This document shows, in pieces, positions 30,266-50,515 of a stretch of DNA of 51,450 nucleotides. Each line of letters opens with the position of its first letter. Position 1 is the stretch's first letter. The notes under the pieces were generated by a model. The model made no database searches. It saw nothing but the letters and a program-made list of their open reading frames with translations, and was not told the origin of the DNA. The stretch lies in the IMG/VR virus record IMGVR_UViG_2061766007_000510; one strand, 5' to 3'. A program made the position numbers and the translations under genes. The stretch is from an uncultured virus (IMG/VR IMGVR_UViG_2061766007_000510) (taxonomy: Duplodnaviria; Heunggongvirae; Uroviricota; Caudoviricetes).

Positions 30266-30270
30266 GGTGG

Positions 30271-32244: not shown

Positions 32245-32366
32245 GATGAAGTCTCCTTGATTTCCTTGTGCCTAACCTATCCGCCACCGGGGCGTCCCGG
32301 CTTGCCCCCCGTCCCTACCCGGTGNNNNNNNNNNNNNNNNNNNNNNNNNNNNNNNNNNNNNNNNNN

Positions 32367-32747
32367 TTCCTTTTCGAGGACTTTTCGTTCGGCCAGCGCC
32401 TTCTCGTGCTTAGCCTTCTCTTCGGCTTCCCTGATACGGCGTTCCTCGTCCTTTATCTTCTTCAGTTCGGCATACGCCTCGCCGCGCGTCTCCTTGCAGA
32501 AACACTTCTCGCACAGGTCGGCGGGAACAGTAAACGTCTCGCCGTAATAGGTTTCGCCTTGCGTAACCCAGTCGACCGTGATTTCGTACCGGTCTCCTTT
32601 CCGTTCGATACCCTTGAACTCGTAATATCCTGCGCCGCTGATATATATCGAACCGAGCTTGTCGGCTACCCAGTCCGTCAAGTCATAGAGCTCGTCCAGC
32701 GTTTTGCTCGCCTCGATATAGCGGTCAATATTTTCTTTCCCATTCAT
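32367..32747 (-). CDS. hypothetical protein (3' end in gap)
   Basis: MNGKENIDRY...; GGAGG RBS. Confidence 0.65.
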
Positions 32748-32749
32748 TG

Positions 32750-33013
32750 TTATGCCTCCTTCGATACAGGTATCTTGAACACGTGAACCGAGCTGTACCA
32801 GTCGCCCCCGGTAGGCTCTCCGTATTGCCTCTCGCCCACCTGTTCGTATCCGTTCTCGCGCATCACCCAGTCCAGGTGGAGGTGGTCGTGCTTCCAGTCG
32901 CCGTCGGGCACGTCGACCTCCACATTCCCTTCCCGGGTCACATTCCATTCGTAGGGGAGTTCTTTCTCCTTGAAGAAGGCCCTCACCTGGTCAATCAGTG
33001 CCTGCATGCCCAT
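32750..33013 (-). CDS. hypothetical protein
   Basis: 87 aa; GDWKHDHLHLD; AAGGAG RBS. Confidence 0.7.
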   Translation of the reverse strand: MGMQALIDQVRAFFKEKELPYEWNVTREGNVEVDVPDGDWKHDHLHLDWVMRENGYEQVGERQYGEPTGGDWYSSVHVFKIPVSKEA

Positions 33014-33028
33014 CTCTCCTTGTAAATG

Positions 33029-33229
33029 TTATTTTGCCCTCTTGGTTGTCTCGGACTTGATGCGGATGTTCTTCACCTTCGCGGCAGCGAACGCCCTCTT
33101 TACCCAGTCCTTCGCGAACTCTTCGGCTTCCTTCTGACGTTCCTCGTGAGTATCGCCACGGCCCACACCTTCTATGGTGAACGTGACCGTAGTGCTGAAC
33201 TTCTCGTAGATGTAGTCTTTCTTGCTCAT
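33029..33229 (-). CDS. small hypothetical protein
   Basis: 66 aa after repeat and RBS. Confidence 0.7.
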   Translation of the reverse strand: MSKKDYIYEKFSTTVTFTIEGVGRGDTHEERQKEAEEFAKDWVKRAFAAAKVKNIRIKSETTKRAK

Positions 33230-33320
33230 GGTTAAGTCTCCTTGGTTTCCTTGTACCTCACCTATCCGCCACCGGGGCGTCCCGGCTTGCCCCCCGTCCG
33301 TACCCGGTGGCTACCGGGAG

Positions 33321-33512
33321 TTACTTTTCCTTCGCGACGGGTATTGCCTTGGCGCTGATGAACTTGCATCCAATCTTCTTCGTAAGGTTGTACCCGGCAA
33401 TGTTCTCGGCTGCCTTCATGCGGTCTGCGGGAGTGGCCCCGCTTGCCTTGACGGTGGTGGAATATGTCACCGTCACTGTGAAGGTTTCGGTTGTCTTGTC
33501 TACTGTAGTCAT
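33321..33512 (-). CDS. small hypothetical protein
   Basis: 63 aa between two repeats. Confidence 0.7.
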   Translation of the reverse strand: MTTVDKTTETFTVTVTYSTTVKASGATPADRMKAAENIAGYNLTKKIGCKFISAKAIPVAKEK

Positions 33513-33596
33513 GGTTAAGTCTCCTTGGTTTCCTTGTACCTCGCCTATCCGCCACCGGGGCGTACCGGCTTTCCCCCCGTCTCTACCCGGTGGGCG

Positions 33597-33854
33597 CTAG
33601 AGCCCCGAGAGGATTTCCTCCACATCCCGGAACGTACCGGCAAGCCTATCCGCGCAGATGCCGGCCTTCGCCAGGGCCATGAAGAAGTCCTTCCCGTCAT
33701 AGGGACGGGCGAAGAGCAGGTTGCCGCCGGCGGCGCACCCGATGNNNNNNNNNNNNNNNNNNNNNNNNNNNNNNNNNNNNNNNNNNNNNNNNNNNNNNNN
33801 NNNNNNNNNNNNNNNNNNNNNNNNNGCCTGTTCCCTTTCTTCCTCGGTAAGCAT
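33597..33854 (-). CDS. hypothetical protein (partly N)
   Basis: AAGGAG RBS; stop 3 nt from a repeat. Confidence 0.6.
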   Translation of the reverse strand: MLTEEEREQXXXXXXXXXXXXXXXXXXXXXXXXXXXXIGCAAGGNLLFARPYDGKDFFMALAKAGICADRLAGTFRDVEEILSGL

Positions 33855-33896
33855 AAAGAGTCTCCTTAAAAATTTAAATAACGTTTTTTGTAAAAT

Positions 33897-34463
33897 TTAA
33901 TTTTCATCCGGCATCACCAGCACGTGGTCGTCCGTGTCGAAGCATCCCGCCACCGGCAGCTCCACCGAGGGAAAACGGCCCTCGTCCAGCACGTACTCGT
34001 CCTCCACGCAGAAGTCCACCGTGACGCCAACCGGGACCACCCGGAAGGTACTGGTGTCTCTGTTGCTCACAAGGGCCAGGTTGTGCCTCTTCAGCACCTT
34101 CACGAGCCTCTCGGAGGCTTCCACCACCTCGTCAATCGCCCCGTCGGTCACCTTCCCGTACCATTCGGCCTTCCTCTTGTCGTTCTCCTCGCCCTTCCGG
34201 TACCACTTGCCAATCTCCTCGGCGAACCCGTGGTTGGACATGATGAACCTGTCGGCGCGGTCGCCGTTCCTGTAGATGGATAGCACCGGCCCGGCTGCGT
34301 TCAGGTCCAGGTCGAAGTGCACGTAGTCCCCGCCGCCCACGCGGATGAGGCCGCACACCCCGCGCGTGGCCGAGTAGTCCACGCACGTGTTCCTGACGGT
34401 CACGCAGACCCCATCGAGGGCCTTCGATACAACCTTCTCCAGGTCCGTCCCGATGGCATCCAC
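33897..34463 (-). CDS. hypothetical protein (probably extends 5' across the gap towards 34774)
   Basis: 188+ aa ORF. Confidence 0.6.
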   Translation of the reverse strand: MDAIGTDLEKVVSKALDGVCVTVRNTCVDYSATRGVCGLIRVGGGDYVHFDLDLNAAGPVLSIYRNGDRADRFIMSNHGFAEEIGKWYRKGEENDKRKAEWYGKVTDGAIDEVVEASERLVKVLKRHNLALVSNRDTSTFRVVPVGVTVDFCVEDEYVLDEGRFPSVELPVAGCFDTDDHVLVMPDEN

Positions 34464-34778
34464 GTGGTTCGCTATCCCCGCCGTACTCTCCGCGGNNNNN
34501 NNNNNNNNNNNNNNNNNNNNNNNNNNNNNNNNNNNNNNNNNNNNNNNNNNNNNNNNNNNNNNNNNNNNNNNNNNNNNNNNNNNNNNNNNNNNNNNNNNNN
34601 NNNNNNNNNNNNNNNNNNNNNNNNNNNNNNNNNNNNNNNNNNNNNNNNNNNNNNNNNNNNNNNNNNNNNNNNNAGCCTACCCCAGCGAACCCGGTCGCCC
34701 TCCGGGCGAACCCCGGAGGCTCCCGGCAGGCCCCTCGACTCCAAAAATTCCTTTACCTTCTCGGCATTGCACATGGCC

Positions 34779-35090
34779 CTATCCCCCTATTACGAAAATC
34801 CTTACGCTGCCCACGTCCACCTGGTTCACAGACCCGTCGGCGACCGCTGCCTCCAGGCAGTCGAGCCAGGAGTCGAGCTCCGGACCGTCCTTGACGAGGA
34901 AACGGCAGAGTCCGGTCCATCCGCTCCTGTTGCTGAACCCGACCGCGTAGGAGCCTCGCTGGCTCCCCACTATATCCCGGACCTCCCTGGCCGCCTCCGG
35001 CAGGCCCCGGCAGGTCCCGTCGCTCCACGTGGCCCTCTCCTTCCCGTTCACCTCGGCCATGCTCTGGCCGTATACTACGACGTGTACCAT
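34779..35090 (-). CDS. hypothetical protein
   Basis: 103 aa; AGGAG RBS after repeat. Confidence 0.65.
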   Translation of the reverse strand: MVHVVVYGQSMAEVNGKERATWSDGTCRGLPEAAREVRDIVGSQRGSYAVGFSNRSGWTGLCRFLVKDGPELDSWLDCLEAAVADGSVNQVDVGSVRIFVIGG

Positions 35091-35181
35091 GTTCCAGTCT
35101 CCTGTTTTTAAAAAATTTTTCCCGCACTCCGCCTATCCGCCACCGGTACTCCCCGGCTTGCCCCCCGTCCATACCCGGTGG

Positions 35182-35520
35182 CTACCGGGAGGACTTCATC
35201 TTCTCCCACCTGTCCATCTCGTAGTCCAGGTCCTTCGCCTTTACTCCGCAACGGACAAGGCAGTCCCTCATCTCCCTGATTTCCTTGTCGGAGAACTTCC
35301 AGAAGTTCTCGGCGATGAAGGCCTCGGATACGTCGTTCACCACGGCGTAGGTCAGGTAGCCCTTCGGGGTGCACTCCACCCGTCCACCCGGATGCTTCGG
35401 GTCGTTTACCTCCTTCTGGACGGTAGTCAGGTCGAAGAACCAGTCCATCTTGGCCGCATCGGCCAGCCGGTCGATAAGCCACCATTCGTGCCTCGTGATT
35501 TCAGTTCTGCGGTGTGCCAT
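35182..35520 (-). CDS. hypothetical protein
   Basis: MAHRRTEI...; exactly fills the interval between two repeats. Confidence 0.7.
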   Translation of the reverse strand: MAHRRTEITRHEWWLIDRLADAAKMDWFFDLTTVQKEVNDPKHPGGRVECTPKGYLTYAVVNDVSEAFIAENFWKFSDKEIREMRDCLVRCGVKAKDLDYEMDRWEKMKSSR

Positions 35521-35645
35521 TATAATGTCTCCTATAAAAAAGTTTTCCAATCCACCTATCCGCCACCCGTACTCCCCGGCTTGCCCCCCGTCCGCTCCCG
35601 GTGGAATACACCGGGAAATCCCCCGGGAGGCTACCGGGAGGTCCC

Positions 35646-36010
35646 CTAGATGCTCTCCACCTTGTAGATTTCCACGTGGTAGAGCCCGGGCTTCGTGATG
35701 TAAAGCTCCCCGCACTCCTCCTCGGCTACCTCCCGGGCAATCTCGGCAACCTTCTTGCTGAAGCCCCTGCCCTCCACGCGAGTCCACTCGCAGTTCGGCA
35801 GCGTGCTGTACAAAAGAACGCTCCCCGGGCCGTACCCGGCCAGTGCGTGGATGGCCGCCTCGAGCGCGGACGCTATCGCCCCGCTACGGGGGTTCGCATC
35901 GCTCTCCACCNNNNNNNNNNNNNNNNNNNNNNCTCGATGGCCTCGTCCTCCCCGCTCAGCGCCCCCATGTCGGTGACGCACCTCGCTCCTATCAGTACCT
36001 TCATATCCAT
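35646..36010 (-). CDS. hypothetical protein (gap-interrupted)
   Basis: MDMKVLIG...; AGGAG RBS after repeat. Confidence 0.6.
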
Positions 36011-36314
36011 GTCTCCTATTTAAAAGTTTTTTTCCTTGTACTTCTCCTATCAGCCACCGGTGCATCCCGGCTTTCCCCCCGTCCCCACCCGGTGGGTTCC
36101 ACCCGGAACCTACACGCTAGACCCGATGCCCGTACTCCCCGTAGAAGCCCCCGTGCAGTACCCCCCCTGCCCATCCGTGCAGGGTACACCGAATGTCCCC
36201 CCTACGGGGATATGCCGGGCCGATGGTGGGAACTACTGGGAGATACTGGGAGGATGTGGGGGAATACCGGGAGAAGGAGGGGTCAAACCCGTGTTCAACG
36301 AGACGAGAATTGCC

Positions 36315-36710
36315 CTTTTTGAGCGAATTTAAGCATTTGGAAAATTAAAATTTACAATACCTCCCGGAGACCCCCCGGAGACCCCCCGGAGCCTCCCGGT
36401 AGCAACCTGGGTGCAGACGAGGTGCATACTAGGTGCAGACCCGGAGCCGGAGGCCACCCCGGAGCCTACCGGGAGTCACCGGGAGCAACCTGGGAGCCAC
36501 CGGGAGATACATATCCGCCACCGGGGGCCACCGGCATGCCCCCCGTCCTCACCCGGTGGATGGAGGGCGGCTCCACGGGGACAGACCGGGATGCGCCATC
36601 CCCCTGGAGACCTCCCGGTGGCATCCGGGTGGCTACCGGGAGCGACCTGGGGGCGACCTAGGGGCTACCGGGAGGAACCTAGGGGCTACCGGGAGATACC
36701 GGGAGGGGCA
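36315..36710. repeat. non-coding tract of ~10-11-bp-periodic CCGG(G)AG units beside an AT-rich stretch
   Basis: CCGGAGACCCC repeated, then many (CT/CC)ACCGGGAG units; AT-rich 36315-36358. Confidence 0.7.
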
Positions 36711-36747
36711 AAAAAACAAAAAAAGCCCCCGCCTGACGGCGGGAGCT
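36710..36747 (-). terminator. intrinsic terminator
   Basis: GC-rich hairpin 36724-36747 followed by a long T run on the - strand. Confidence 0.7.
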
Positions 36748-36759
36748 GCCCCTTGTCGT

Positions 36760-37296
36760 TATGAGTATCAGTAGTAGATGGGCGCGAGGGTGATGCGGGC
36801 GTCCTTTACCGGCTGGGNNNNNNNNNNNNNNNNNNNNNNNNNNNNNGGCCTCCTCGGTGGTGTCCTCGGGAGCGAGGTCGTAGACCTTGACGAGCTTTCC
36901 GTTTTCGTCCACGGTGTTGATGGTAGCCACCCAGGCATCGGGCTTGGGGGGTTCGTCGACGGTATCGTGGAGGTCGTTGAGGCGCTCGCGGATGTCGGCG
37001 GCGGTCTCCTGGAACTCGTCCTTCAGGGTGTCGGTCTCGTCGGCGAGGGTGTCAATCTTGTCGGAGAGTTCCTCCCAGGCCTTCTTCTTCTTCCCGAAGA
37101 GGGGGAGTCGGAAGGACCAGGGGGAGCCGACGGCCTTGACGAAGGCGGCCACCGCGAGGATGACGATTACCGCGTAGACGGCGACGGTCTCGACGACGGT
37201 GGTCGGGGAGGCCTGGCCGGAGGCGATGAGGTAGGTGTTGAAGCCCGCGACGCCGAGTACGGCGAGGGCGACTGTGTAGATGAGTGTCTTGAGCAT
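36760..37296 (-). CDS. membrane protein with two TM helices and acidic coiled coil (3' end uncertain, gap)
   Basis: MLKTLIYTVALAVLGVAGF...VIVILAVAAFV; AAGGAG RBS. Confidence 0.7.
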
Positions 37297-37389
37297 TGGT
37301 TGACTCCTTTTGTAGTTGATTGTTTCAAGTTCGGTTTACATATACGCTACCGGGGCGTCCCGGCTTGCCCCCCGTCCGTACCCGGTGGG

Positions 37390-37740
37390 CTACGAGTTGT
37401 GGTCCGCCGTGACGAAGGACTCCAGTTCCCTTACGAGGTCGAAGGTATGGAATACGAGGTCGATTAGGGGCCAGACCTTGTAGCTGACAACCCTGTCGAG
37501 GACTACGGAGCGTTCGGTGAGGGAGCGTACGACTACCCGGCATGCGGGGTCCCTCCCGTTCCTTCCGTGGGATACGGAGGCGGGAAGGAATTCTACGGTG
37601 TGGGTGTCGGACTTCACCTTGGTGCCTCCCGGTAGAAGGACGAGGTTGAGGCCGGTGATTTCCTTGTAGTCCACGAAGGACTTGCTGATGGCGCTGGCCT
37701 CTTCCGGGGTGAACTTCTTGTGGGTATGGGTAGTGGGCAT
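37390..37740 (-). CDS. hypothetical protein
   Basis: 116 aa; stop 1 nt from a repeat. Confidence 0.7.
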   Translation of the reverse strand: MPTTHTHKKFTPEEASAISKSFVDYKEITGLNLVLLPGGTKVKSDTHTVEFLPASVSHGRNGRDPACRVVVRSLTERSVVLDRVVSYKVWPLIDLVFHTFDLVRELESFVTADHNS

Positions 37741-37758
37741 GGTCTGGCTCCTATGGGA

Positions 37759-38322
37759 TTACTTGAGCATCCCGTCGATGAGGTTGGCGAGCGCGATGAG
37801 CTGGTCCTTCTCGCAGTTGACCGCGTGGAGGCGGATTTTCTGGGAGAGGCGCTGGAGGAAGCGCGGGTCCTTCCGGGAGGGGAAGGGGAGCTGCTCGATG
37901 GGGATGCGGGAGAGTTCGGCCTCCTTCTTCAGGCGGATTTCCTCGGCCTTTGCCTGTTCGGCGTAGGCCTTGAGCTGGAGGTAGTGCTGGTGGGCGTCGT
38001 CGGCGGAGGTGTAGTTGGCCTTGGAGAGCGTCCCGGTGGCGCAGTTGCCGCATGATACCGGGAAGCCCTTGAAGTTCCTGGAGTAGTGGAGGTCCTTCCC
38101 GCAGGTACAGCGGTAGGGGTGCGGGAGGCCGAAGAGCATGGCGAAGCACTCGTCTACGCGGAGGGGGTGCTTCTGGTACACGTGGTCCTCGAAGACGCGC
38201 TTGGGGAACGGGGTCCGGCAGAGCGGACAGTGGATTGTGGTACGGGAGTACTTCATCCCCTCGGTCTTCTGGTGGGTGACGTACTGGTCCTTCGGCTGTG
38301 TGATGTACTTCAGTTGTGGCAT
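37759..38322 (-). CDS. zinc-finger protein
   Basis: C2H2-like CPLC...H...H, then CxCG and CxxC; MPQLKYIT start with AGGAG. Confidence 0.7.
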   Translation of the reverse strand: MPQLKYITQPKDQYVTHQKTEGMKYSRTTIHCPLCRTPFPKRVFEDHVYQKHPLRVDECFAMLFGLPHPYRCTCGKDLHYSRNFKGFPVSCGNCATGTLSKANYTSADDAHQHYLQLKAYAEQAKAEEIRLKKEAELSRIPIEQLPFPSRKDPRFLQRLSQKIRLHAVNCEKDQLIALANLIDGMLK

Positions 38323-38462
38323 CTGTTGGCTCCTATGAAAATTAAGATTTACAATATTGGGAAATCTCCCGGAAGCATCCGGTGCATACCGTATACGCCA
38401 CCGGGGCATGCCGGCTTGCCCCCCGTCCTCACCCGGTGGGTACGGCGGGGGCAACCGGGAGG

Positions 38463-38804
38463 CTACCCGGCGAACTTCCCGACCAGTGCCATCGCGGATA
38501 TGTCGACGGCCACGTAGTCTATGCGGGAGACCTTCCCGAGTGCGGCGAGCACGGCCTCGACGACCTTGGACCCGCTACGGAATGCGGGTTTGCCGCCAAT
38601 CCCGTCGGTTAAGTATACGATGGACTTCGTGACCTGGCTGCCGTGATGGACGATAGTGAGGAACGCCCCGTGCAGCTGGTCCGGCGTGTTCACGTTCATG
38701 ATATTCACGATGCGGGCGGAAATCTCGTACGCAAGCGCCAGTTTCTTCCCGGGATTTTCCGGGAGGTCCGGGAGAGTGACCCTGTTCTCGTTAAAAAGTT
38801 CCAT
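38463..38804 (-). CDS. hypothetical protein
   Basis: MELFNENRV...; between two identical repeats. Confidence 0.7.
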   Translation of the reverse strand: MELFNENRVTLPDLPENPGKKLALAYEISARIVNIMNVNTPDQLHGAFLTIVHHGSQVTKSIVYLTDGIGGKPAFRSGSKVVEAVLAALGKVSRIDYVAVDISAMALVGKFAG

Positions 38805-38936
38805 TGCGGTCTCCTTTGTCTGGTGCATGTATACGCCACCGGGGCATGCCGGCTTGCCCCCCGTCCTCACCCGGTGGATGGCGCGGGAGCTCCCGGGAGG
38901 TACCAGGGGACTCTCGGGGGATTTGCCGGGGATACG

Positions 38937-38970
38937 AAAAGGGGCCCCCCGGCAGAAACCGGGAGGCCCC
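38937..38970 (-). terminator. intrinsic terminator
   Basis: GGGGCCTCCCGG-TTTCTG-CCGGGGGGCCCC-TTTT on the - strand. Confidence 0.7.
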
Positions 38971-38988
38971 ATGAGGAGACAACAAAAA

Positions 38989-40062: not shown

Positions 40063-40087
40063 GGTTGTGTCTCCTTTGATGTTCTGC

Positions 40088-40384
40088 CTATCCTCTACCG
40101 GTGCATCCCGGCTTGCCCCCCGTCCTTACCCGGTGGGTGCCCAAGTCGAGCGCGTCGAGGATTGCCAGTATCTGCTGGTGGGTGTCCTCGGAGTAGACTC
40201 GGTAGGAGATGTACTCGCCAATGCGGATAACCGCCTGGACGTAGAGTTCATCCTCGGTGGTGAGCCCGTCGATGCCATGTAGGGCCTCGAGGGCGAGTTT
40301 GGCCATCTCCACGTCGGGGCACTTGATGAGTGCCGAGATGGATGTCGTGGTCTGCCTGTCGAGTTTTGTAATCTTGTACTTCAT
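40088..40384 (-). CDS. hypothetical protein (reads through a repeat)
   Basis: 98 aa; AGGAGG RBS. Confidence 0.65.
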   Translation of the reverse strand: MKYKITKLDRQTTTSISALIKCPDVEMAKLALEALHGIDGLTTEDELYVQAVIRIGEYISYRVYSEDTHQQILAILDALDLGTHRVRTGGKPGCTGRG

Positions 40385-41754: not shown

Positions 41755-41829
41755 AGGTTGCCTCCTTGTTGTAGTACACTTATCAGCTACCGGGGTGCAC
41801 CGGCTTGCCCCCCGTCCGTACCCGGTGGA

Positions 41830-42174: not shown

Positions 42175-42254
42175 GTCGGTCTCCTTGTTATATAATACGG
42201 GTATGCCCCCGGTAGTTTCCGGGAGCATCCACCGGCGGCACCCGGTGGGCCAGG

Positions 42255-42773: not shown

Positions 42774-42858
42774 TGTTGTGTCTCCTTTTGTTAAATTTTT
42801 TATCTGCCACCGGGGCGCACCGGAGTGCCCCCCGTCCTTACCCGGTGGGCTACCGGGT

Positions 42859-43188: not shown

Positions 43189-43266
43189 GCTGCTGTCTCC
43201 TTTTGTTGATTTCTCTATACGCCACCGGGGGGCACCGGCGTGCCCCCCGTCCTTACCCGGTGGATG

Positions 43267-43539
43267 CTAGTAGAGTTCCAGGGTCTCGATGTGGAACACT
43301 TCGGTCCCTGCATCCCCGTCCTCGTTCCATGCGAGGGTAATCCAGGTTGCACCGGAGTTGACGGCCTCGGCCACCGCAGCTACGCTGGCAGGCTCCGGGG
43401 AGTCTCCGAAGGTAGCTCCGGGGTGGAGGCAGATGATGGTGGCGACCTCGTCGCAGAGGGCCTGGAGGACGTTGCCCTCCAGTTCATCGTCGGCGGCCAT
43501 GATTGAGTTTTCGTGAATAAGCAAAAATTTTTTATTCAT
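43267..43539 (-). CDS. small acidic protein
   Basis: 90 aa; stop 3 nt from a repeat. Confidence 0.7.
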   Translation of the reverse strand: MNKKFLLIHENSIMAADDELEGNVLQALCDEVATIICLHPGATFGDSPEPASVAAVAEAVNSGATWITLAWNEDGDAGTEVFHIETLELY

Positions 43540-43540
43540 A

Positions 43541-43747
43541 TCAGTCGTCCGTCGAGATGTTGATGGTTACAATGTCGGAGCCCTTCTTGATGCAGTCGAT
43601 GGAGCATACCTCGTGATAGAGGATGTTTGTGTCGGTGAGTTCGTCACCGGGGCCACGATAGATTTCCTTGCTCTGGTCGAGGTCGTAGATGGCAAATTGC
43701 TGCAATCCGGAGTCACAGAAGGTGTCGATGAGTTCTTCTACGGTCAT
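43541..43747 (-). CDS. small acidic protein
   Basis: 68 aa; AGGAGG RBS. Confidence 0.7.
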   Translation of the reverse strand: MTVEELIDTFCDSGLQQFAIYDLDQSKEIYRGPGDELTDTNILYHEVCSIDCIKKGSDIVTINISTDD

Positions 43748-43756
43748 GATGTCCTC

Positions 43757-44032
43757 CTACACTTCGATGGTGCTTGCGGTGATTTCCCACTTGACCCAGC
43801 CGTCCCAGCGGTCGTCCGGGGACTCGATGCCCTGGCGCTTGGCGATGCTCTTCCACTCGTCCTTCGGGAGGGCGGTCTCTTCCGCGTCGTTCTGTTCGGC
43901 CATGGTGTTGTAGTCCTTGACGATGAACTTCGCAGCCTTCTCGATGGTCGGGAAAGCCTTGGCGAAGGTGATGAGTTCGCCGGAGTTTTCGTAGAACTGC
44001 GCGGTGTGTACGATGTAGATTTTCTTCTTCAT
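43757..44032 (-). CDS. hypothetical protein
   Basis: 91 aa after repeat and RBS. Confidence 0.7.
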   Translation of the reverse strand: MKKKIYIVHTAQFYENSGELITFAKAFPTIEKAAKFIVKDYNTMAEQNDAEETALPKDEWKSIAKRQGIESPDDRWDGWVKWEITASTIEV

Positions 44033-44165
44033 GGTGTGTCTCCTTGTTGATGTTTGTTGATTACCGTATCAGCCACCGGGGCATCCCGGCTTGCCCCCCG
44101 TCCTTACCCGGTGGATTACCCGTGGTAGCCCCCGATACGTCCCGGCCTGCGTTCGTCCCTTGCCA

Positions 44166-44342
44166 TTACTGTACCTCCTCTACGGAGTTGGTTTCCACCC
44201 ATGCGAGGTCGAGGTCTTCCTTTGCCTCGTCGTCGTACAGTTCGTAGCCGCCGTAGATTTCCTCGGCTTCCTCCGGGGAACTGGCCCATACGAACGCCTC
44301 CGAGCGGAAAGTAATTCTGTAGCGTTTCTTTTCCATTGGCAT
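44166..44342 (-). CDS. small very acidic protein
   Basis: MPMEKKRYRITF...ASSPEEAEEI. Confidence 0.7.
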   Translation of the reverse strand: MPMEKKRYRITFRSEAFVWASSPEEAEEIYGGYELYDDEAKEDLDLAWVETNSVEEVQ

Positions 44343-44435
44343 AGTTGTGTCTCCTTGTTGATGTTTGTTGATTATCGTATCAGCCACCGGTGCATCCCGG
44401 CGTGCCCCCCGTCCGTACCCGGTGGATTGCCGGGG

Positions 44436-44762
44436 TCAGCCCTCGGCTTCCACGGTGACGATGAAGGCGTTTCCTTCGTGGTCGCACAGTTGCCATTCGC
44501 CGAGGAACTCGTCCTCCACGTCGGTATGCGATACCTCGGAGTAGGTGCCGTCCGCGTTGCGCTTGAACAGCACGGCCTCCGTCCAGCAGGGCTCCTCGTC
44601 ACCGCAACCGACGATTTTCACGTCCACCAGGTACAGGTCGTCGAGGAACGACGCGGTTTCCGCTTCCGAGGCCATGTCGTCCATGAGTCCGGGTTCGGAA
44701 AGCGCACGCTTGATGAAGTCGGCGCGTTCCTTGGAAATTTTTATTGTCTTGTAGTAGTCCAT
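44436..44762 (-). CDS. acidic hypothetical protein
   Basis: MDYYKTIKIS...WTEAVLF; GGAGG RBS. Confidence 0.7.
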   Translation of the reverse strand: MDYYKTIKISKERADFIKRALSEPGLMDDMASEAETASFLDDLYLVDVKIVGCGDEEPCWTEAVLFKRNADGTYSEVSHTDVEDEFLGEWQLCDHEGNAFIVTVEAEG

Positions 44763-44773
44763 AGTTGCCTCCC

Positions 44774-45007
44774 TTATTTGGCCTTCTCGATGTCGATGGA
44801 ATATCCACATCCCTCGTCGATGTAGAAACTCATGTCCTTGTTGCTGTCGAGTTCAAAGCACCAGTCCTGTACTGCGTACTTGTCAATGGTGTCGTTGTCG
44901 TACAGTTCGATGCAGATTTCGCGTACCTTGTCGTTGCGTGCCTTGAAAGCCTCGTTAATTGTGCGGTGGGTAGATACGATGTTTCCGTCTACTTTGAGAT
45001 TGTACAT
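44774..45007 (-). CDS. hypothetical protein
   Basis: 77 aa after repeat and AGGAGG. Confidence 0.7.
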   Translation of the reverse strand: MYNLKVDGNIVSTHRTINEAFKARNDKVREICIELYDNDTIDKYAVQDWCFELDSNKDMSFYIDEGCGYSIDIEKAK

Positions 45008-45080
45008 GTTGCCTCCTGGTTGCAGAAAAAATATCCGAGACCGGGGTGCACCGGCGTGCCCCCCGTCCGTGCCCGGTGGG

Positions 45081-45518
45081 CTACCAGCGTACCCCGTTGT
45101 AGTGGAAGCCGTCGTCGTCGGTGTGGATGTTGTGGACGATGGTCGCCTGCTTCATGCGTGCCACCTGCCCGTCGTAGATGGCCCTGGTCTCCTCCTTGGA
45201 GAGGGCGCGGGCGTCCCGCTGTTCCTCGGTTCCGAGGAACTTGGGGTCGCGGTCTGGCGCGGATGAGGTGAGCGGGCGCGGGTAGTTGTACTCGCGCTCG
45301 AAGCGTCCCCAGTCCATGAGGTCGTTGTAGCAGTAGAGGCAGTTCACCATACGCATCGCGCGCAGTGCGGCAATCCTATGGGTCTCCTGCGGGGTCTGGA
45401 GGTAGAAGTAGGGGTAGTCTGCATCCGGGTTGCGGGCCAGGACAGCAGCGTCGATGTCCTCTATTTCCTTTTCGATTTCCGGGTCGGACAGACCCACCTT
45501 TCCGAGTTCAAGTGCCAT
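45081..45518 (-). CDS. hypothetical protein
   Basis: 145 aa single-ORF unit; stop 1 nt from a repeat. Confidence 0.75.
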   Translation of the reverse strand: MALELGKVGLSDPEIEKEIEDIDAAVLARNPDADYPYFYLQTPQETHRIAALRAMRMVNCLYCYNDLMDWGRFEREYNYPRPLTSSAPDRDPKFLGTEEQRDARALSKEETRAIYDGQVARMKQATIVHNIHTDDDGFHYNGVRW

Positions 45519-45775
45519 GATGTTATCTCCTTTGTCTGGTGGATGTATCTGCTACCGGGGCATCCCGGCATGCCCCCCGTCCTCACCCGGTGGATAGCGG
45601 CATGTCGCCCGCCAGGCGACGCCGGTACCTCCTGCTGTCAGCCAGTTGAGAAACATAAGTAGCCCCCCGGGATATTCCGGGAGGCTACTGGGAGAGGCTT
45701 TGCCCACACAAGATTATCCTTGTGCATTTTTCGCTACAGAATGAACGGGGGTTAGCCTTGGAGACAACAAAGTTA

Positions 45776-46933
45776 TTAGAGTTTCCTACCGCACTCGGGG
45801 CAGAACTTCCACTCGGCGCAGCCGGCATAGAGGCCGGAGTCGTAGACGTTGACCTCGCAGGTACGTCCGTCGCGCTGGAAGTGGAGGGTTTCCGAGCCGA
45901 AGGTTACCTCCTTGCCGGAGCAGAGGGGGCATTCCGGTTCCTTACCGGAGGCTTCCGGGGGAACGATGTACTCATTGAGGTTCTTCTCGAGCTCTTCGTA
46001 GGTGTAGCCACCCCCGGTGAGCCCCGGAGAGGAAAAGGAAAATTCTTTGCCCTTGCATCGGATGGTCAGCGGGCATTCCTGGTAGGTACCATTCCATTCA
46101 ATCGTGCCGTCCGCTTTGAGGTTGACGGACTTCTCGGTAAATTCCGGGAGCCTGTCCTTGTACTTTCGCTCGATGAAGTAGTGAAATGTAAAATAAAAAT
46201 TTACAATTTCCTGGCGGGCATTGTACGGGTCCTTGATTGCGAGCTCGTCGGACTCGTCTTCTTTCGGCCAGATGAACATGAAATGTTCCCATTCCTTGTC
46301 GGTGCAGCGCCACATGGTCTTGAAGCGGCAGACGAACATGGTTCCGCCGAGTACGAACGGGATGTCCACGTTGATTGCCTGACCCCCGTCATGGAATGAC
46401 GATACACAGAGAGGGTCGAACTTGGCATCGGGGAGGCAGCGGTTGAACGCGGTAATCGCCAGTTGCTCCCGGTAGGCTACCGGGGTGAGACTGTCGAAGA
46501 GTTCCTTCACCGGGTCGTCCGCCTCGGGGTCGTTGGTATATACCACTTCGACGTTCCTGCGGTCGTACCCGTTCTTCTCGAGGAGGTTGAGGAGGTGCAG
46601 GGCGATTGTCTGTTCGTCCGGGGAGGGCATTTCGGCGGTACCGGAGAGTACGTTGGCGAGCGCCACGATGGTGTTGGCGGACTTGGAGTAGGCGACGTAG
46701 GCGCTCATGCCGGTGTCGGGGTTGACGACTACGCTGTTGCTGCGCCTGGACTTGTACCATTCGATAGGCGCGTCGAAGCGGTCCGCGTATTCCTCGGAGG
46801 GCATGGCGAAGGCCAGGTCTCCGTACTGGGCGGGAACCAGGTCGAGGTTTTCGAGGTATTCCACCACCCCGCAGATGTCCGGGTGGTTCTTGATTGCGAC
46901 GATGGAAAGGGTGAGTTTGCCAGTGTTCTTCAT
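45776..46933 (-). CDS. hypothetical protein with C-terminal zinc ribbon
   Basis: 385 aa; CPLC...FCPECGRKL. Confidence 0.75.
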   Translation of the reverse strand: MKNTGKLTLSIVAIKNHPDICGVVEYLENLDLVPAQYGDLAFAMPSEEYADRFDAPIEWYKSRRSNSVVVNPDTGMSAYVAYSKSANTIVALANVLSGTAEMPSPDEQTIALHLLNLLEKNGYDRRNVEVVYTNDPEADDPVKELFDSLTPVAYREQLAITAFNRCLPDAKFDPLCVSSFHDGGQAINVDIPFVLGGTMFVCRFKTMWRCTDKEWEHFMFIWPKEDESDELAIKDPYNARQEIVNFYFTFHYFIERKYKDRLPEFTEKSVNLKADGTIEWNGTYQECPLTIRCKGKEFSFSSPGLTGGGYTYEELEKNLNEYIVPPEASGKEPECPLCSGKEVTFGSETLHFQRDGRTCEVNVYDSGLYAGCAEWKFCPECGRKL

Positions 46934-47060
46934 GTTGTCTCCTTTGCTGCTTAACGTATCTGCTACCGGGGCATCCCGGCTTGCCCCCCGTCCTTACCCG
47001 GTGGGTAAAGTGGAGCCTCCCGGCAGGTACCGGGAGGCCACTGGAGGCAACAAAAAATTA

Positions 47061-47083
47061 GGCTATGTCCACCCAAAGTGTTG
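47061..47083 (+). repeat. orphan copy of the IS1595-like element end
   Basis: GGCTATGTCCACCCAAAGTGTTG, identical to the reverse complement of 5405-5427. Confidence 0.8.
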
Positions 47084-47085
47084 AA

Positions 47086-47340
47086 TTAACCTCTTATTTC
47101 AACGATTTTCAACGCGAGGATTTCGCCGGAGGAGGTTTCATACCGGTAACCTTCGGAGCAGTCCTCCGGTAAAACTGGTTCGTCCTCATCATCGCATACG
47201 GCTATCGTTTCGTTGACGATGGTGCTGACCTCTTTCGCGGCCTTTTCGCGGCTGGTGAAAACGTCCGGCACCTCTACAATTTCGGTACCGTCAGAGAACT
47301 GATGGTAGCCGCTGATGATGAATTTGCTCTTGCAGGCCAT
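47086..47340 (-). CDS. acidic hypothetical protein
   Basis: MACKSKFII...; GGAGG RBS. Confidence 0.7.
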   Translation of the reverse strand: MACKSKFIISGYHQFSDGTEIVEVPDVFTSREKAAKEVSTIVNETIAVCDDEDEPVLPEDCSEGYRYETSSGEILALKIVEIRG

Positions 47341-47359
47341 AGGGTCCTCCATTTAAAAA

Positions 47360-48046
47360 TTATTCGTTGGATATTGCGTACTGGTACTTTTCCAGAACGC
47401 AGTTTTCTATGTGTTCGCGGAGCTGGCGGGTAATCGGGAAGAACTGGGTACGCAGGTCTTCCTCCTTGGCGTTGACTACCGGGTAGGCCACGAACAGCCC
47501 GTTCACGCCGTCCACGATGCGGAGGTCGCGGAGAATAAGCTGGTCGTTCAGCACGACAGATGCGAGACCGACCGTGTGCTTGGCGTTCGGCTTGATGAAG
47601 GGGAACACCTGAACCTGGGTGACGGCCAGGCAGTCGAAGGCGTCGGTCTTCTCGGTTTCTACCGGTTGCTGCCGGGAGGCGCCGGTGAGCTTGTAGAGGA
47701 GGTCTTTCATTTCTCCCTTCATGTACTCCTTGTCCTCGATGAGCTCCTTGAGGTCGGGAGCGCCGTTCTTGCCGTGTCCCTCGGAGTCCACCCAGGGCAT
47801 GGCCTCGGCTACGGGGTCGTAGGAGTCGATGTAGTCCTGGAGCTCGCCGGCGATTTCCTTGACGGTGGGCTTCCCGGAGATTACGAGGGAGGCGATGAAG
47901 TCTTCGCCTGCTGGCGAGGCTGTCTCGAACTCGACGACGGTTTCTGCGCGGTCTCCATTCTGGCTGACGCTCGCGCTCCATTCGGAGTCCTTGATGATTT
48001 CCTCCAGTTTCTCTTGGGTCTTTTCGTAGTAAGATTTACGTGCCAT
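47360..48046 (-). CDS. SpoVG-domain fusion protein
   Basis: C-terminal VTQVQVFP...LASVVLNDQLILRDLRIVDGVNGLFVAYP...FPITRQLREHIENCVLEKY; extra ~125-aa acidic N-terminal domain. Confidence 0.85.
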   Translation of the reverse strand: MARKSYYEKTQEKLEEIIKDSEWSASVSQNGDRAETVVEFETASPAGEDFIASLVISGKPTVKEIAGELQDYIDSYDPVAEAMPWVDSEGHGKNGAPDLKELIEDKEYMKGEMKDLLYKLTGASRQQPVETEKTDAFDCLAVTQVQVFPFIKPNAKHTVGLASVVLNDQLILRDLRIVDGVNGLFVAYPVVNAKEEDLRTQFFPITRQLREHIENCVLEKYQYAISNE

Positions 48047-48119
48047 GTTGTTGTCTCCTGTTGATTACCGTATCTGCCACCGGGGCATCCCGGCTTGCCC
48101 CCCGTCCGTACCCGGTGGG

Positions 48120-48473
48120 CTAGAAGTCCTTACCCCGGCGCGGCTGGTAGACGTTCAGCTTCTTGACCTCGACCGGGTAGCCCTTGCCGTCCATGTCGTT
48201 GTGCCAGTCGGTGCGGTACTGGTCGAGCAGGTACTTGACGTGTTCCGGGTCGCACCGGTCAGTCCCCGGGCGGGAGTGGGCATAGTAGTCGTAGCCGGAC
48301 TCGTTGTAGTAGTGGCTGTCGCCCGTATCGGTGCAGATGCACTCAATCCAGCTCTTCCGGCATACCTTGGAGCAGCTCCAGAAAAAAATAATCGGGAACC
48401 AGCAGCGTTGGTACGGGTTGTATTCCTGCCGGAGAACAAAGGCGTTCTCCCAGTTCTTTACTTGTCTAGCCAT
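48120..48473 (-). CDS. hypothetical protein
   Basis: MARQVKNW...; single-ORF unit. Confidence 0.7.
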   Translation of the reverse strand: MARQVKNWENAFVLRQEYNPYQRCWFPIIFFWSCSKVCRKSWIECICTDTGDSHYYNESGYDYYAHSRPGTDRCDPEHVKYLLDQYRTDWHNDMDGKGYPVEVKKLNVYQPRRGKDF

Positions 48474-48545
48474 ATCAGCCTCCTTGTTGTTCACTATATA
48501 CGCCACCGGGGAGCACCGGCGTGCCCCCCGTCCGTACCCGGTGGA

Positions 48546-49028
48546 CTACTTGGCAATCTCCGGGAGGTCCTTGGTGATTTTGACTCCGAACATTTCGGCC
48601 TTCTTCTTGAACTCCTCCCAGAACGGCTTGAGGCGTTCGACGGGCGTGGACTTGATGGTAGTCCCGTCATCGTTCACGTCGAACCATGCGTCTATGCACT
48701 CGTCCTTGTCGTCGCTGAAGATTTCCGCCTCGGTAATGGTGCCGTACCCTTCTCCGTAGCGGTCGATGTCGCCGTCGTCCTGGCCTACTCGGATAAGGTA
48801 GTAGTCTTCTTCGTCGGCATTGTCGAGCACGTCCATGACGGCATCAACATCCGGGTAGTGTCCCCGGCAGTATTCATCCCACTTCGTATAGGCCTCGAAG
48901 TAGTAGGTCTGCCCACTGGGGGAAACCTTGAGTTCTTCGAACGGCGACCCGTTTTCCTTGATTGCCTTGAAAATTTTCTTTGCCACATTCTTCTTTGCGA
49001 GAAGCCTGACTGTGCTGTAATATCCCAT
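48546..49028 (-). CDS. acidic hypothetical protein
   Basis: MGYYSTV...KW...Y...IRVGQDDGDI; single-ORF unit. Confidence 0.75.
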   Translation of the reverse strand: MGYYSTVRLLAKKNVAKKIFKAIKENGSPFEELKVSPSGQTYYFEAYTKWDEYCRGHYPDVDAVMDVLDNADEEDYYLIRVGQDDGDIDRYGEGYGTITEAEIFSDDKDECIDAWFDVNDDGTTIKSTPVERLKPFWEEFKKKAEMFGVKITKDLPEIAK

Positions 49029-49100
49029 GTTTGCCTCCTTGGTAAAAAAATTATCCGATACCGGGGAACCCCGGCGTGCCCCCCGTCCGTACCCGGTGGA

Positions 49101-49616
49101 CTACTTGGCCGCCTGGATGGCGTCCAGGAAGACCGAGTGGTTGTGTGACTGGTGTGTGAGGTCGTCGATGAAGTCGGAGTCCACCAGGGTGTAGTATTCG
49201 TGGTCCCAGTTGTCCACGCCGAAGTGTTCGAAGTCCACGTCCGCGTATCGGTCCACGTCGATGATGCCGGAGCCGTTGCACTCGCAGCAGGTCTCCTCTA
49301 CGGTGACCGTCTCGCCATCCTCGTCCTCTTCCTCGTACTGGAGGTAGCCGGACCCGTCGCAGTCCGGGCAGGACTTCGAGAGGGAGATGCCGTCTACTCC
49401 CTTGACGATGAACTGGGCCGCCTCGGTTGCCTTCCGGCCCGCCTCGGTATCTCCCAGTTCATGCTTGAGTGCGTTCGCCCAGTCGTCCACGGAACCGTAT
49501 GCTTCGATGAGGTCGTCAATGTAGCCGTTGAAGCACGCTTGTGCCATGCCCCCGTTGCAAATCTGGTAGTGGAGCTGCCCGAGCCATTCGACTGCGGTAA
49601 ATTCTTTTGTTGCCAT
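49101..49616 (-). CDS. DMP19/DUF4375-like acidic protein with inserted CxxCxGxG zinc finger
   Basis: YQICNGGMAQACFNG resembles the DUF4375 EVxNGGFxQxFxN motif; CPDCDGSG...CCECNGSG. Confidence 0.6.
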   Translation of the reverse strand: MATKEFTAVEWLGQLHYQICNGGMAQACFNGYIDDLIEAYGSVDDWANALKHELGDTEAGRKATEAAQFIVKGVDGISLSKSCPDCDGSGYLQYEEEDEDGETVTVEETCCECNGSGIIDVDRYADVDFEHFGVDNWDHEYYTLVDSDFIDDLTHQSHNHSVFLDAIQAAK

Positions 49617-49692
49617 AGTAGCCTCCTTGTTGTATAAAAAATATCTGCCACCGGGGCGCACCGGCGTGCCCCCCGTCCTTGCCCGGTGGATG

Positions 49693-49866
49693 CTACCGGG
49701 ACTTCTCCTTCAGTTCCAGTCCGTCCTCCAGTCTGGTGTTCATCCAGTGTCTGAGGGAACGGGCGCAGTCCCGGCAGATTACGCGGGTGTCAGCGCCGAA
49801 AGAAAATTTTGGCCCCGGGTCGCCCTTCAGCGGCAGCCTGCAAACTTGACATTCAGTAATCGGCAT
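49693..49866 (-). CDS. 57-aa CxxC...CxxC protein (below ORF-track cutoff)
   Basis: MPITECQVC...VICRDCAR; AAGGAG RBS; stop 3 nt from a repeat. Confidence 0.6.
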   Translation of the reverse strand: MPITECQVCRLPLKGDPGPKFSFGADTRVICRDCARSLRHWMNTRLEDGLELKEKSR

Positions 49867-49939
49867 GGTTTTCTCCTTGTAGTAAACGGTGGCCTCCCGG
49901 GATGTACCCGGGAGGCTTTGGTTGGCTGCTATGGAAAGG

Positions 49940-50320
49940 TTAGTCCCATTCCTCGTGGTAGAGCTTGCGGAGCTCGCCGAGGGTATTCTTGAAGGGTTCG
50001 ACGGAGCTGTCGCGCTCGATGTACAGCCCGTAGGGGAGCTTGATGTCCATCAGTTCCTTGAGGCTGATGTCGCCGAGCTCGAGGCCGTAGCCCAGGGTTG
50101 CGGCTCCGAACACAATCATGTTCTCGTCGATGTGGTCGGCGTCCTTCGGTTCGCCGTCCTTGAAGAACATGGAGTCTTCGAGCACGTACCATGTGCCACT
50201 GCCCATCGGGTTGAAGAAGCGGGCGATTACGCGCTTGTCGTCCTTCGGGGTTCCGTCGGTGGAGCCGTAGGGGGTCTTGGCGAGTGCGTCGATGATTGCC
50301 TTGGTTATTCTTTTCTGCAT
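49940..50320 (-). CDS. DUF2958-like protein
   Basis: RFFNPMGSGTWYVLE...FG...LGYGLELGDISLKEL...IERD. Confidence 0.8.
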   Translation of the reverse strand: MQKRITKAIIDALAKTPYGSTDGTPKDDKRVIARFFNPMGSGTWYVLEDSMFFKDGEPKDADHIDENMIVFGAATLGYGLELGDISLKELMDIKLPYGLYIERDSSVEPFKNTLGELRKLYHEEWD

Positions 50321-50515
50321 ATTGTTGTCTCCTGTTGATTACCGTATCTGCTACCGGGGCGCACCGGCTTGCCCCCCGTCCTCACCCGGTGGATGTACCC
50401 GGTTCCGACTGGCAGGTCCCGGGGACAGCGCATCGAGGCGCAGGAAGGCATTTTATACAAAAAATCCCCCGGGATAGCCCTGGAGATTTCTGGAGGTCGT
50501 CGAAATTAGCGAAAT

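Follow-up and report, generated by a model that had tools for sequence, protein, structure and literature searches.

The window, a stretch of 51,450 nucleotides from a large T4-like phage of the cattle gut, contains 29 copies of a G+C-rich element of 47-48 bp, all on the minus strand, and 28 of the 29 are followed by a leader, a ribosome-binding site (RBS) and a start codon. These units precede most small genes of one variable region, and most of the ORFs behind them had no family assignment (57 window proteins scanned). Comparison with two related phages revealed, besides the repeats and families of shared leaders, orthologs that switch elements, changed gene order and element types specific to a genome. 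We suggest that the units are promoter-RBS cassettes resembling the promoter-early stem-loops (PeSLs) of T4-type phages, and that they are likely homogenised and shuffled by recombination between copies. The array spans 30291-51037 and is thus wider than the initially annotated 32245..50392. Its features are as follows.

26795..27565, minus: phage-encoded factor of the sigma-70 family (256 aa, with regions 2 and 4); its counterpart in relative G001 is 88% identical
30266..30338, minus: type-A element 30291-30338, 25-nt leader/RBS; ORF start 30265
30643..30718, minus: type-A element 30671-30718, 28-nt leader; ORF start 30642
32245..32325, minus: type-A element 32278-32325, 33-nt leader of one family with those of 33263 and 33546; ORF 32244
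33230..33310, minus: type-A element 33263-33310, 33-nt leader; ORF 33229, 66 aa, remote paralog of 33512
33513..33593, minus: type-A element 33546-33593, 33-nt leader; ORF 33512, 63 aa
35091..35181, minus: type-A element 35134-35181, 43-nt leader; ORF start 35090
35521..35604, minus: type-A element 35557-35604, 36-nt leader; ORF start 35520
36011..36095, minus: type-A element 36048-36095 and leader; ORF start 36010 or 36004
36100..36760, no strand: non-coding repeat-rich spacer with an orphan type-A element and a terminator at 36724-36747
36512-36559, minus: the orphan type-A element, without RBS, ORF or start signature
37297..37388, minus: type-A element 37341-37388, 44-nt leader; ORF 37296, RBS-ATG spacer kept in both relatives
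38323..38439, minus: type-A element 38392-38439, 69-nt leader; ORF 38322
38805..38877, minus: type-A element 38830-38877, 25-nt leader; ORF 38804
38941..38985, minus: intrinsic-terminator-like hairpin 38941-38970, apart from element, preceded by anti-RBS stretch 38975-38985
40063..40136, minus: type-A element 40089-40136, 26-nt leader; ORF 40062, 357 aa
41313..41383, minus: type-A element 41336-41383, 23-nt leader; ORF 41312, pentapeptide repeats and DUF5758
41755..41828, minus: type-A element 41781-41828, 26-nt leader; ORF 41754
42175..42248, minus: sole type-B element of the window, 42202-42248 (47 bp), and leader; ORF 42174; clusters with the relatives' elements (100/100)
42774..42848, minus: type-A element 42801-42848, 27-nt leader; ORF 42773
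43189..43263, minus: type-A element 43216-43263, 27-nt leader; ORF 43188, paralog of 32244
44033..44114, minus: type-A element 44067-44114, 34-nt leader; ORF 44032
44343..44425, minus: type-A element 44378-44425, 35-nt leader; ORF 44342
45008..45079, minus: type-A element 45032-45079, 24-nt leader; ORF 45007, then element-less ORF 44762
45519..45593, minus: type-A element 45546-45593, 27-nt leader; ORF 45518
45658..45689, minus: intrinsic-terminator-like hairpin, apart from element
46934..47004, minus: type-A element 46957-47004, 23-nt leader; ORF 46933, 385 aa
48047..48118, minus: type-A element 48071-48118, 24-nt leader; ORF 48046, C-terminal SpoVG domain
48474..48544, minus: type-A element 48497-48544, 23-nt leader; ORF 48473
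49029..49099, minus: type-A element 49052-49099, 23-nt leader; ORF 49028
49617..49689, minus: type-A element 49642-49689, 25-nt leader; ORF 49616
50321..50392, minus: type-A element 50345-50392, 24-nt leader; ORF 50320 (DUF2958)
50957..51037, minus: type-A element 50990-51037, 33-nt leader; ORF 50956
51103..51133, minus: intrinsic-terminator-like hairpin, apart from element

The relatives, G001 (116.7 kb, from a record 41% complete) and L025, are two independent assemblies, one of them a 9-kb piece; G001 encodes a gp55-type late sigma factor, prohead protease, tail sheath stabilizer and baseplate wedge of T4-like kind. Type A dominates the window and type B is the type of the relatives. A tree of element plus leader, proposed in the initial annotation, separated type A (26 window copies) from type B (21 from G001, 11 from L025 and 1 from the window) with support 100/100, and grouping followed genome rather than ORF. 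The elements share the 5' arm CCACCGG and contain two tandem CCGG-N6-CCGG inverted sites, whose N6 spacers vary freely from copy to copy; in type B the second site is a near-perfect 11-bp inverted repeat. Type B occurs in 47- and 48-bp forms, the extra base lying between an ATGC box and an ATA, a length change that resembles 17/18-bp promoter spacers. Leaders measure at least 22 nt in the 60 elements of the three genomes that have one.

The element is probably a promoter. An ATA is invariant, and a pyrimidine at +8 and a purine at +9 after it occur in 57 of these 60 elements (28/28 in the window; 41/43 after removal of near-copies; background 0.16 per position). When the same signature was anchored on the ATG, no offset exceeded 21/60. 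The fixed offset, which recurs in 5/9 and 14/25 cases among the phage's host-type TGnTATATT promoters, places the ATA at -11 to -9. The ATGC(T/C) box of type B would lie at about -36 to -31. The -10 consensus is poorly kept (T at -12 in only 9/60 and at -7 in only 11/60 elements), there is no TTGACA, and no sigma-70 site was found on the minus strand between 31500 and 51450. The geometry of the predicted start site is sigma-70-like, whereas its sequence is not, and the promoter class would be of an unfamiliar kind, neither host-type nor late. The sigma-70-family factor at 26795..27565 is a candidate reader.

The initial annotation had described near-identical element and leader blocks, and this was confirmed in part. 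Leaders 33230-33262 and 33513-33545 agree at 32/33 positions, 44035-44066 and 44346-44377 at 31/32, and 48048-48070 and 50322-50344 at 23/23. A relation of 32245-32277 to the first pair is present (28/33 and 27/33), but 28/33 reaches only the edge of the null distribution. Across 351 pairs the median leader identity was 0.52, and the best pair in 200 column-shuffled, RBS-anchored sets never exceeded 0.846; the three best real pairs (0.97, 0.96 and 0.91) thus stand clear of chance. Elements 38392 and 38830 are identical (48/48), and 35134 and 35557 agree at 44/48. The likeness of neighbors also held: adjacent elements differ at 5.56 positions versus 6.48 when permuted (p 0.003, n=28), and adjacent leaders are 0.624 alike versus 0.515 (p 5e-5, n=27). 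Restricted to the right block, the effect has p 0.002 for leaders but only p 0.053 for elements. It may partly reflect strand-specific base bias, because the coding strand is G-rich in the left block and C-rich in the right one; the sign of GC skew flips within the spacer 36100..36760. The blocks are not near-identical as wholes, however: elements 48071 and 50345 differ at 6/48 positions, about as much as an average pair, despite their matching leaders. Shared tracts are patchy.

The initial annotation also proposed a comparison of orthologous ORFs, and this supports exchange: in the two relatives they carry different elements and leaders and stand in altered order. The first 90 nt of window ORF 41754 and L025 ORF 4201 agree to 97%, and the L025 ORF has a type-B element and a leader 100% identical to that of the unrelated L025 ORF 4910. 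ORF 48046 is 94% identical to G001 ORF 1179, with a different element and leader and identity starting 12-13 nt before the ATG. ORFs 44762 (99% identical to G001 ORF 768), 43747, 32747 and 31371 have an element in G001 and none in the window. Overall, ORFs with a gained or switched element and leader are 94-99% identical at their 5' ends, from the RBS on. The ortholog's leader was the reciprocal best match in only 3/23 cross-genome pairs; 10 of the 11 leader pairs at or above 0.85 lie within one genome (643 within- and 1127 cross-genome pairs), and the nearest neighbor came from the same genome for 53/60 elements and 37/60 leaders (about 22 by permutation).

The boundaries of identity are scattered from the 5' arm to the RBS, with no single crossover point. 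The trailer between stop codon and element, together with the first element bases, goes with the upstream ORF, its length being kept (1/1, 1/1/1, 10/10 and 3/3) though the next gene changes, and the RBS-ATG spacer often goes with the downstream ORF. Before 38322, a genome-specific ORF lies between identical repeats in two of three genomes (48/48 in the window, 71/71 in G001); the window's ORF 38804 has no ortholog in the compared stretches of either relative. The leaders of 38322 and 37296 stay with their ORFs across genomes, and in L025 the former is kept with a changed element type. Some shuffling was not element-to-element: ORF 43539 changed its upstream neighbor at a junction without an element, and ORF 37740 was lost where only one side has one. 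ORFs 40384 and 41571 lack an element in the window, but contigs of gut run X6 join them to a new leader and element, and those of X1 and X4 skip the 36010 unit; these are among the joints listed, from short-word contigs at 85% likeness, and mis-joins or mis-placed repeats are possible. The initial suggestion that element and RBS are copied as a module, or ORFs swapped behind it, stands as exchange but not as movement of a rigid single block.

We propose that the element is a repeated non-canonical promoter covering about -56 to +1, and that promoter, short leader and RBS would front most transcription units of the variable region. Since 20-30 similar, co-oriented copies are present, the phage's ordinary homologous recombination may act between them by crossover or conversion, for which patchy tracts are the expected pattern. 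Exchange would take place mostly between the common 5' arm and the common RBS, possibly with circles as intermediates; ORFs would be inserted, deleted or moved, or receive a new promoter and leader, and copies inside one genome would stay alike by concerted evolution. The phage's sigma-70-family factor or an activator may read the element. It is also conceivable, if rather improbable, that one phage protein reads the CCGG-N6-CCGG double site, both driving the promoter and steering recombination. This would be an integrase-free shuffling device, with the site helically phased genome-wide and types A and B sweeping arrays with reader variants.

Tandem duplication of whole promoter-leader-ORF units, with ORFs diverging fast and the regulatory part subject to selection or base bias, would account for similar neighbors and for short, A/C-rich leaders under common constraint. 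The adjacent ORFs 33229 and 33512, whose leaders are nearly identical, fit it: contrary to the initial view that ORFs behind shared leaders lack clear similarity, they align from Met1 (z 7.0 local and 5.6 global, 2000 shuffles). For that one pair, this is the outcome which the initial annotation had named as refuting its suggestion. The three other pairs tested are unrelated, with local z of -1.0 (44032/44342; hhalign probability 0.4%), -0.3 (48046/50320; SpoVG versus DUF2958, different families) and -0.3 (32244/33229). Identity does not always end at the start codon, as had been claimed, since 32244 and 33229 match at 9 of the first 10 coding bases. ORF 44032 has a paralog in the element-less ORF 47340, and the closest paralogs, 32244 and 43188, are 80% identical in amino acids, yet their leaders are only 0.48 alike. 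Element type follows genome, and the ortholog switches largely refute duplication without exchange, which we consider very improbable. Leader families created by the assembly from collapsed repeats are extremely unlikely. The window is a gapped scaffold (2455 N) and its repeats exceed common assembly word lengths, but several positions distinguish the members of a family. Among the pieces listed, contigs of run X1, which may be the source sample, read from leader into ORF at 44032, 48046 and 50320 and show 0 differences there. Both further assemblies repeat the pattern, each with leader families of its own.

A role of the element as RNA, whether it terminates a long transcript, marks a processing site in it or stabilises it by a hairpin, is likewise very unlikely. 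Type B does fold well (mean z -3.7; 21/22 and 12/12 below -2), and the outer type-A stem is 91% paired. However, type A folds weakly (mean z -1.7; 10/28 below -2) into differing shapes, and its outer stem has 0 compensatory changes and 18/208 broken cells; no U-tract follows the elements, terminators are separate units, Rfam gave no match for the elements, and the start signature behind the ATA is fixed. Site-specific shuffling, in which a phage protein binds the tandem sites and directs strand exchange to them in the manner of an integron integrase acting on attC, appears quite improbable to us. Each element has two arm-spacer-arm sites with 6-bp spacers, and their outline resembles tyrosine-recombinase sites; G001 is enriched throughout in CCGG pairs 10 bp apart, and the slot with a variable ORF between identical repeats would also fit. 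Against this, tyrosine recombinases (PF00589) had 0 matches in the 116.7 kb of G001 (record 41% complete) and none was found among the 57 window proteins scanned; only IS607-type serine recombinases adjoining transposases were found. Boundaries are spread and N6 spacers differ freely. The attC core boxes of integrons are RYYYAAC and GTTRRRY, and both occur together in 0/29 window elements.

The PeSL-like reading can be set against several known systems. Integron arrays share co-oriented small ORFs, repeated sites with inverted symmetry and variable order and content; here, in contrast, each unit would have its own promoter, boundaries do not fall at one point, and no integrase was found in the G001 record or among the 57 window proteins scanned. 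In the excerpts used here, the SAS/ESAS repeats of cluster K mycobacteriophages are start-associated sequences that precede non-core genes and combine imperfect inverted repeats with a variable spacer; their consensus varies between related phage groups, their function is described as not established, and ESAS remain linked to the same families of genes in different genomes (Pope et al. 2011, PMC3203893). Our element is likewise an inverted repeat with a variable spacer before genes and differs in consensus between related phages, but here orthologous ORFs gain, lose and switch elements, and both phage group and sequence are different. T4 middle (MotA/AsiA) promoters, as described in the part of the source used, have an intact TATAAT, with the Mot box TGCTT lying 11-13 bp upstream of it (Nolan et al. 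2006, PMC1524935). Like them, our element would be a second phage-specific class beside host-type and gp55 late promoters, and in type B a conserved upstream box similarly replaces TTGACA. However, box and -10 are about 18 bp apart here, the -10 is degenerate and type A has no box (60-element alignment); a general PHROGs scan of 59 G001 and 57 window proteins did not name MotA or AsiA.

PeSLs are the closest parallel. The excerpts used here describe them in the T4-type phages RB49/phi1, PST/T4 and nt-1/KVP40. Their promoters are of host sigma-70 or T4 early/middle type, the upstream part is rich in A+T, and the unit includes a terminator stem-loop; both promoter activity and mini-circles were demonstrated, crossovers were reported between -10 and RBS/ATG, and no dedicated recombinase was identified (Arbiol et al. 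2010, PMC2839356; Comeau et al. 2014, PMC4122927). The present comparison covers DNA contigs. As with PeSLs, the setting is a hyperplastic region of a T4-like phage, where dense intergenic units of putative promoter, RBS and ATG precede orphan ORFs; ORFs are gained, lost and exchanged at them between close relatives (with exceptions at element-free junctions), and many boundaries fall between -10 and RBS/ATG. Unlike PeSLs, the element is G+C-rich and lacks a host sigma-70 or T4 early/middle consensus, with only the ATA of the -10 kept; a conserved hairpin seems to be absent, type B folding well but type A weakly, and terminators are separate units. Between close relatives, moreover, one of the two types takes the place of the other over almost the entire array. 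The cassette design is already known from T4-type phages, and two things appear to be added to it. One is the promoter class, neither host-type nor late, found in a phage with a second sigma factor of its own. The other is the replacement of one promoter type by another over 20-30 copies between close relatives, a case of concerted evolution of cis-regulatory repeats. Near-identical ORFs behind different promoters and leaders, with boundaries readable at the RBS and 5' arm, make the comparative evidence for promoter-mediated gene shuffling in phages unusually sharp. In addition, the defined motif and candidate reader make testable the question, posed in the PeSL work, of whether a sequence-specific protein targets recombination.

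Each element consists of two tandem CCGG-N6-(C/A)CGG sites followed by ATA. The window's usual form, type A, occurs in 28 copies of 48 bp between 30291 and 51037, all on the minus strand and none in the rest of the window. Its consensus is CCACCGGG-N4-GACGGGGGG(C/A)A-NN-CCGG-N6-CCGGT-N5-ATA, with 29/48 columns invariant in an alignment of 26 copies, from which one copy truncated by Ns and one member of an identical pair were omitted. In 27/28 cases the element stands before a 23–69-nt leader, RBS and ATG, the copy at 36512 being an orphan; a 29th element (47 bp, at 42202) is of another type. Exact pattern scans for type A gave no match in viral, metagenome or genome contigs, and neither the element nor the phage was described in the open-access papers searched. 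L024, a lone pattern hit within apparent coding sequence, was discarded as chance.

The window, a scaffold with gaps, shares its sequence words with bovine gut runs. It codes for a sigma-70-family factor, FtsK, RadC, DUF932, a CCA-adding enzyme and many orphans. The sigma factor, which had no match among the annotated phages searched, led to a relative, G001 (= L001; 116.7 kb, 41% complete). Because the latter encodes a gp55-type late sigma factor, prohead protease, tail sheath stabilizer and baseplate wedge, the window was read as belonging to a large T4-like phage. Comparison of a cassette with annotated phages yielded a sole, chance-level match of 46 bases, and PADLOC matched 0/11 array proteins. 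Other observations on gene content include an FtsK motor (27684–29581) in which the C-terminal gamma domain was not evident, a SpoVG fusion (47360–48046), DUF2958 (49940–50320), DUF932 (15766–16718) and RadC/JAB. These families, present here in a T4-like phage, are commoner on conjugative elements. The left half of the window contains several duplicated gene blocks, 75–85% alike, including a DUF2201-type metallopeptidase/vWA-like gene (twice) and SprT-like tandem domains, among others. G001 carries IS607-type serine recombinase and TnpB-like transposase pairs, plus lone TnpB-like genes. The region 4400–8900 has lower G+C (about 0.41–0.48) and copies of the short repeat CACTTTGGGTGGACATAGCC at its edges, and looks like a small inserted element; the repeat is also present at 47060–47080 and in G001.

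Duplicated blocks (window) and IS607-type/TnpB-like genes (stretches of G001)
Window 2663–4374 and 8923–10688: duplicated block pair
Window 7760–8100 and 8530–8890: duplicated block pair
Window 21165–21845 and 22663–23700: duplicated block pair
Window 23741–24470 and 24489–25618: duplicated block pair
L003 9829–11729; L004 12478–14214 and 17634–19604; L005 13618–14778: IS607-type/TnpB-like genes

When leaders were aligned on ATA, 57/60 copies had a pyrimidine at +8 followed by a purine at +9, irrespective of leader length (20/22 long leaders); the signature was absent when the alignment was anchored on ATG. The same offset occurs in 19/34 of the phage's host-type TGnTATATT promoters. Taken with established promoter anatomy, this fixed signature points to a start site that would place ATA at -11 to -9, and the element is probably a promoter. 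It has no conserved -12 T or -7 T and no TTGACA, and T4-like late motifs, (G)TATAAACT, occur elsewhere in the phage, so that the element represents a predicted third promoter class; judged from its sequence, the phage has three. Host-type extended -10 promoters, TGCTATATT, lie at 559, 2450, 12697, 15358, 15711, 20754 and 22620 (plus strand) and at 5844 (minus strand), one of them a complete TTGACA-17-TATAAT. The sigma-70-family gene is located 2.7 kb past the last element, and its product would be the obvious candidate reader. Terminators are units separate from the element. An anti-RBS stretch, TTGTTG(T/C)CTCC on the transcribed strand, separates the stop codon from the terminator hairpin. 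It is the complement of the RBS-spacer most frequent among the leaders and could pair with that RBS-spacer or be an inverted relic.

Anti-RBS stretches (window, G001 stretch L002 and the 9-kb relative L025)
Window 38975–38985, 45760–45770 and 47043–47053
L002 1871, 3948 and 7166
L025 496, 2945 and 6055

The CCGG motif is also enriched beyond the array: at 19–117 kb of G001, 46 pairs are 10 bp apart versus about 11 per distance, and 37 long ORFs contain 23 such pairs versus 4.1 +/- 1.8 in 30 synonymous shuffles. Of the tetramers that occur at least 150 times, CCGG was the most strongly phased with the helix. This enrichment of CCGG-N6-CCGG suggests a genome-wide site for a DNA-binding or modifying protein. 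Spacing peaks were observed at 10–11, 21 and 32 bp in G001 19000–116730 (L002–L007); phasing was weaker in window 1–29600. Separately, a non-coding spacer contains roughly 10-bp repeats with CCGG plus orphan elements, and GC skew flips sign there in both the window and G001; it is possibly a replication origin or genome end.

Non-coding spacer
Window 36100–36760
L002 11900–12900
L025 8430–8964

A homologous array in G001 and L025 uses another element, type B, with the consensus CCACCGG-N6-CCGGGGGATGC-NN-CCGG-N6-CCGG-N4/5-ATA. A further candidate relative, L026, from a 284-kb contig, matched G001 at 99.985% across 20.5 kb; the two are one phage, and L026 was not counted as independent. The mean number of differing positions between elements (ungapped) is 7.7 inside the window and 22–23 between the window and either relative. 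In the proposed tree of element plus leader (59 rows, orphans and the N-truncated copy omitted), types A and B separated with 100/100 support, and window element 42202 fell with type B. At 9834 in G001, a decayed type-A copy directly precedes a type-B copy. Between phages with type A and those with type B, the sigma factor differs at a few region-4 positions, none linkable to the element change.

Orthologous ORFs (numbered by start coordinate) are 32–98% identical in amino acids; order is changed in the right block and kept, with indels, in the left. Their comparison, suggested by the initial annotation, revealed that leaders and elements do switch, in three sharp cases. ORF 41754 and L025-4201 are 97% identical over 90 nt, and the L025 leader is identical to that of the unrelated L025-4910; 44762 and G001-768 are 99% identical and G001 alone has an element; for 48046 and G001-1179 (94%), identity begins at the RBS. 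The reciprocal best leader match was the ortholog's in 3/23 pairs, all 38322 or 37296. The ortholog's leader often ranked 2nd–4th because the RBS–ATG spacer tends to go with the ORF. As this spacer tends to follow the downstream ORF and the trailer (stop codon into the first element bases) follows the upstream one, the changing part lies between two short shared sequences, the 5' arm and the RBS. At 43539, a new neighbor occurs at a junction without an element, which counts against a purely element-to-element model. The next gene differed in 30/36 ortholog pairs, a crude tally unfit as a measure and weakened by two pairs at the L025 end, frames read through N gaps and omitted genes. Contigs from four gut runs (on 31460–51450) contained three leader–ORF junctions with 0 differences and joints at elements, and X6 contigs had a new leader and element ahead of 40384 and 41571; since mis-joins are possible at repeats, these contigs are supporting evidence only. 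Joints of depth 79.7 in run X1 lay in short diverged pieces away from elements and were treated as another organism. In L002 7550–8400, unrelated DNA cuts off the ortholog of 49616 at about residue 72; this DNA has on either side 80-bp repeats (96% identical) containing the element.

The leader and element identities listed in the initial annotation were all present, and neighboring units resembled each other beyond chance. The top three leader pairs exceeded an RBS-anchored null; that the leader families are an artefact is very improbable. The blocks had been called near-identical, which did not hold uniformly, as shared tracts are patchy and the 48046/50320 leaders match while their elements differ like an average pair. 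The ORFs behind shared leaders had also been described as without clear similarity. This was borne out for 44032/44342, 48046/50320 and 32244/33229, for which a shuffle test, a profile comparison or Pfam showed no relationship, but 33229/33512 are remote paralogs. Deep-profile searches gave one match each for 33229 and 33512 and three for 44342, too few for a profile; Atlas placed 33229 and 33512 near a common 1195-member viral cluster (scores 0.80–0.84), a lead only. A 109-aa paralog used as query found no locus, and searching genome contigs with a SpoVG alignment gave no relative. A reverse case had been overlooked: the 32244 and 43188 proteins are 80% identical (DNA 77%) with leaders 48% alike, each leader being nearer to a neighboring unit's (0.85 and 0.78). 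At this level of DNA identity the case is suggestive but not decisive. Duplication of units without any exchange is a distinctly improbable account.

We consider it probable that promoter units are shuffled and homogenized by general recombination between copies. If each unit strongly needs one and the same promoter ahead of it, many co-oriented repeats would result, and recombination among them would move ORFs and homogenize element and leader; type-A and type-B phages might swap units, with an imported element converted later. A dedicated site-specific shuffling system is unlikely, as no integrase was found in the incomplete G001 or among the 57 window proteins scanned, and no attC in the window's elements. 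That the element acts as RNA is less likely still: Rfam gave 0 matches, and an RNA-structure role for type A is not supported.

The element would work in the manner of the promoter-early stem-loops (PeSLs) of T4-type phages, for which mini-circles and crossovers between -10 and RBS/ATG were demonstrated (PMC2839356; PMC4122927). It does not fit the PeSL promoter consensus; because of this mismatch and a mixed stem-loop signal, with weak folding in type A and good folding in type B, it was not classed as a PeSL member. The start-associated repeats (ESAS) of cluster K mycobacteriophages likewise have inverted repeats and a group-specific consensus but remain with their genes, unlike the element here (PMC3203893).
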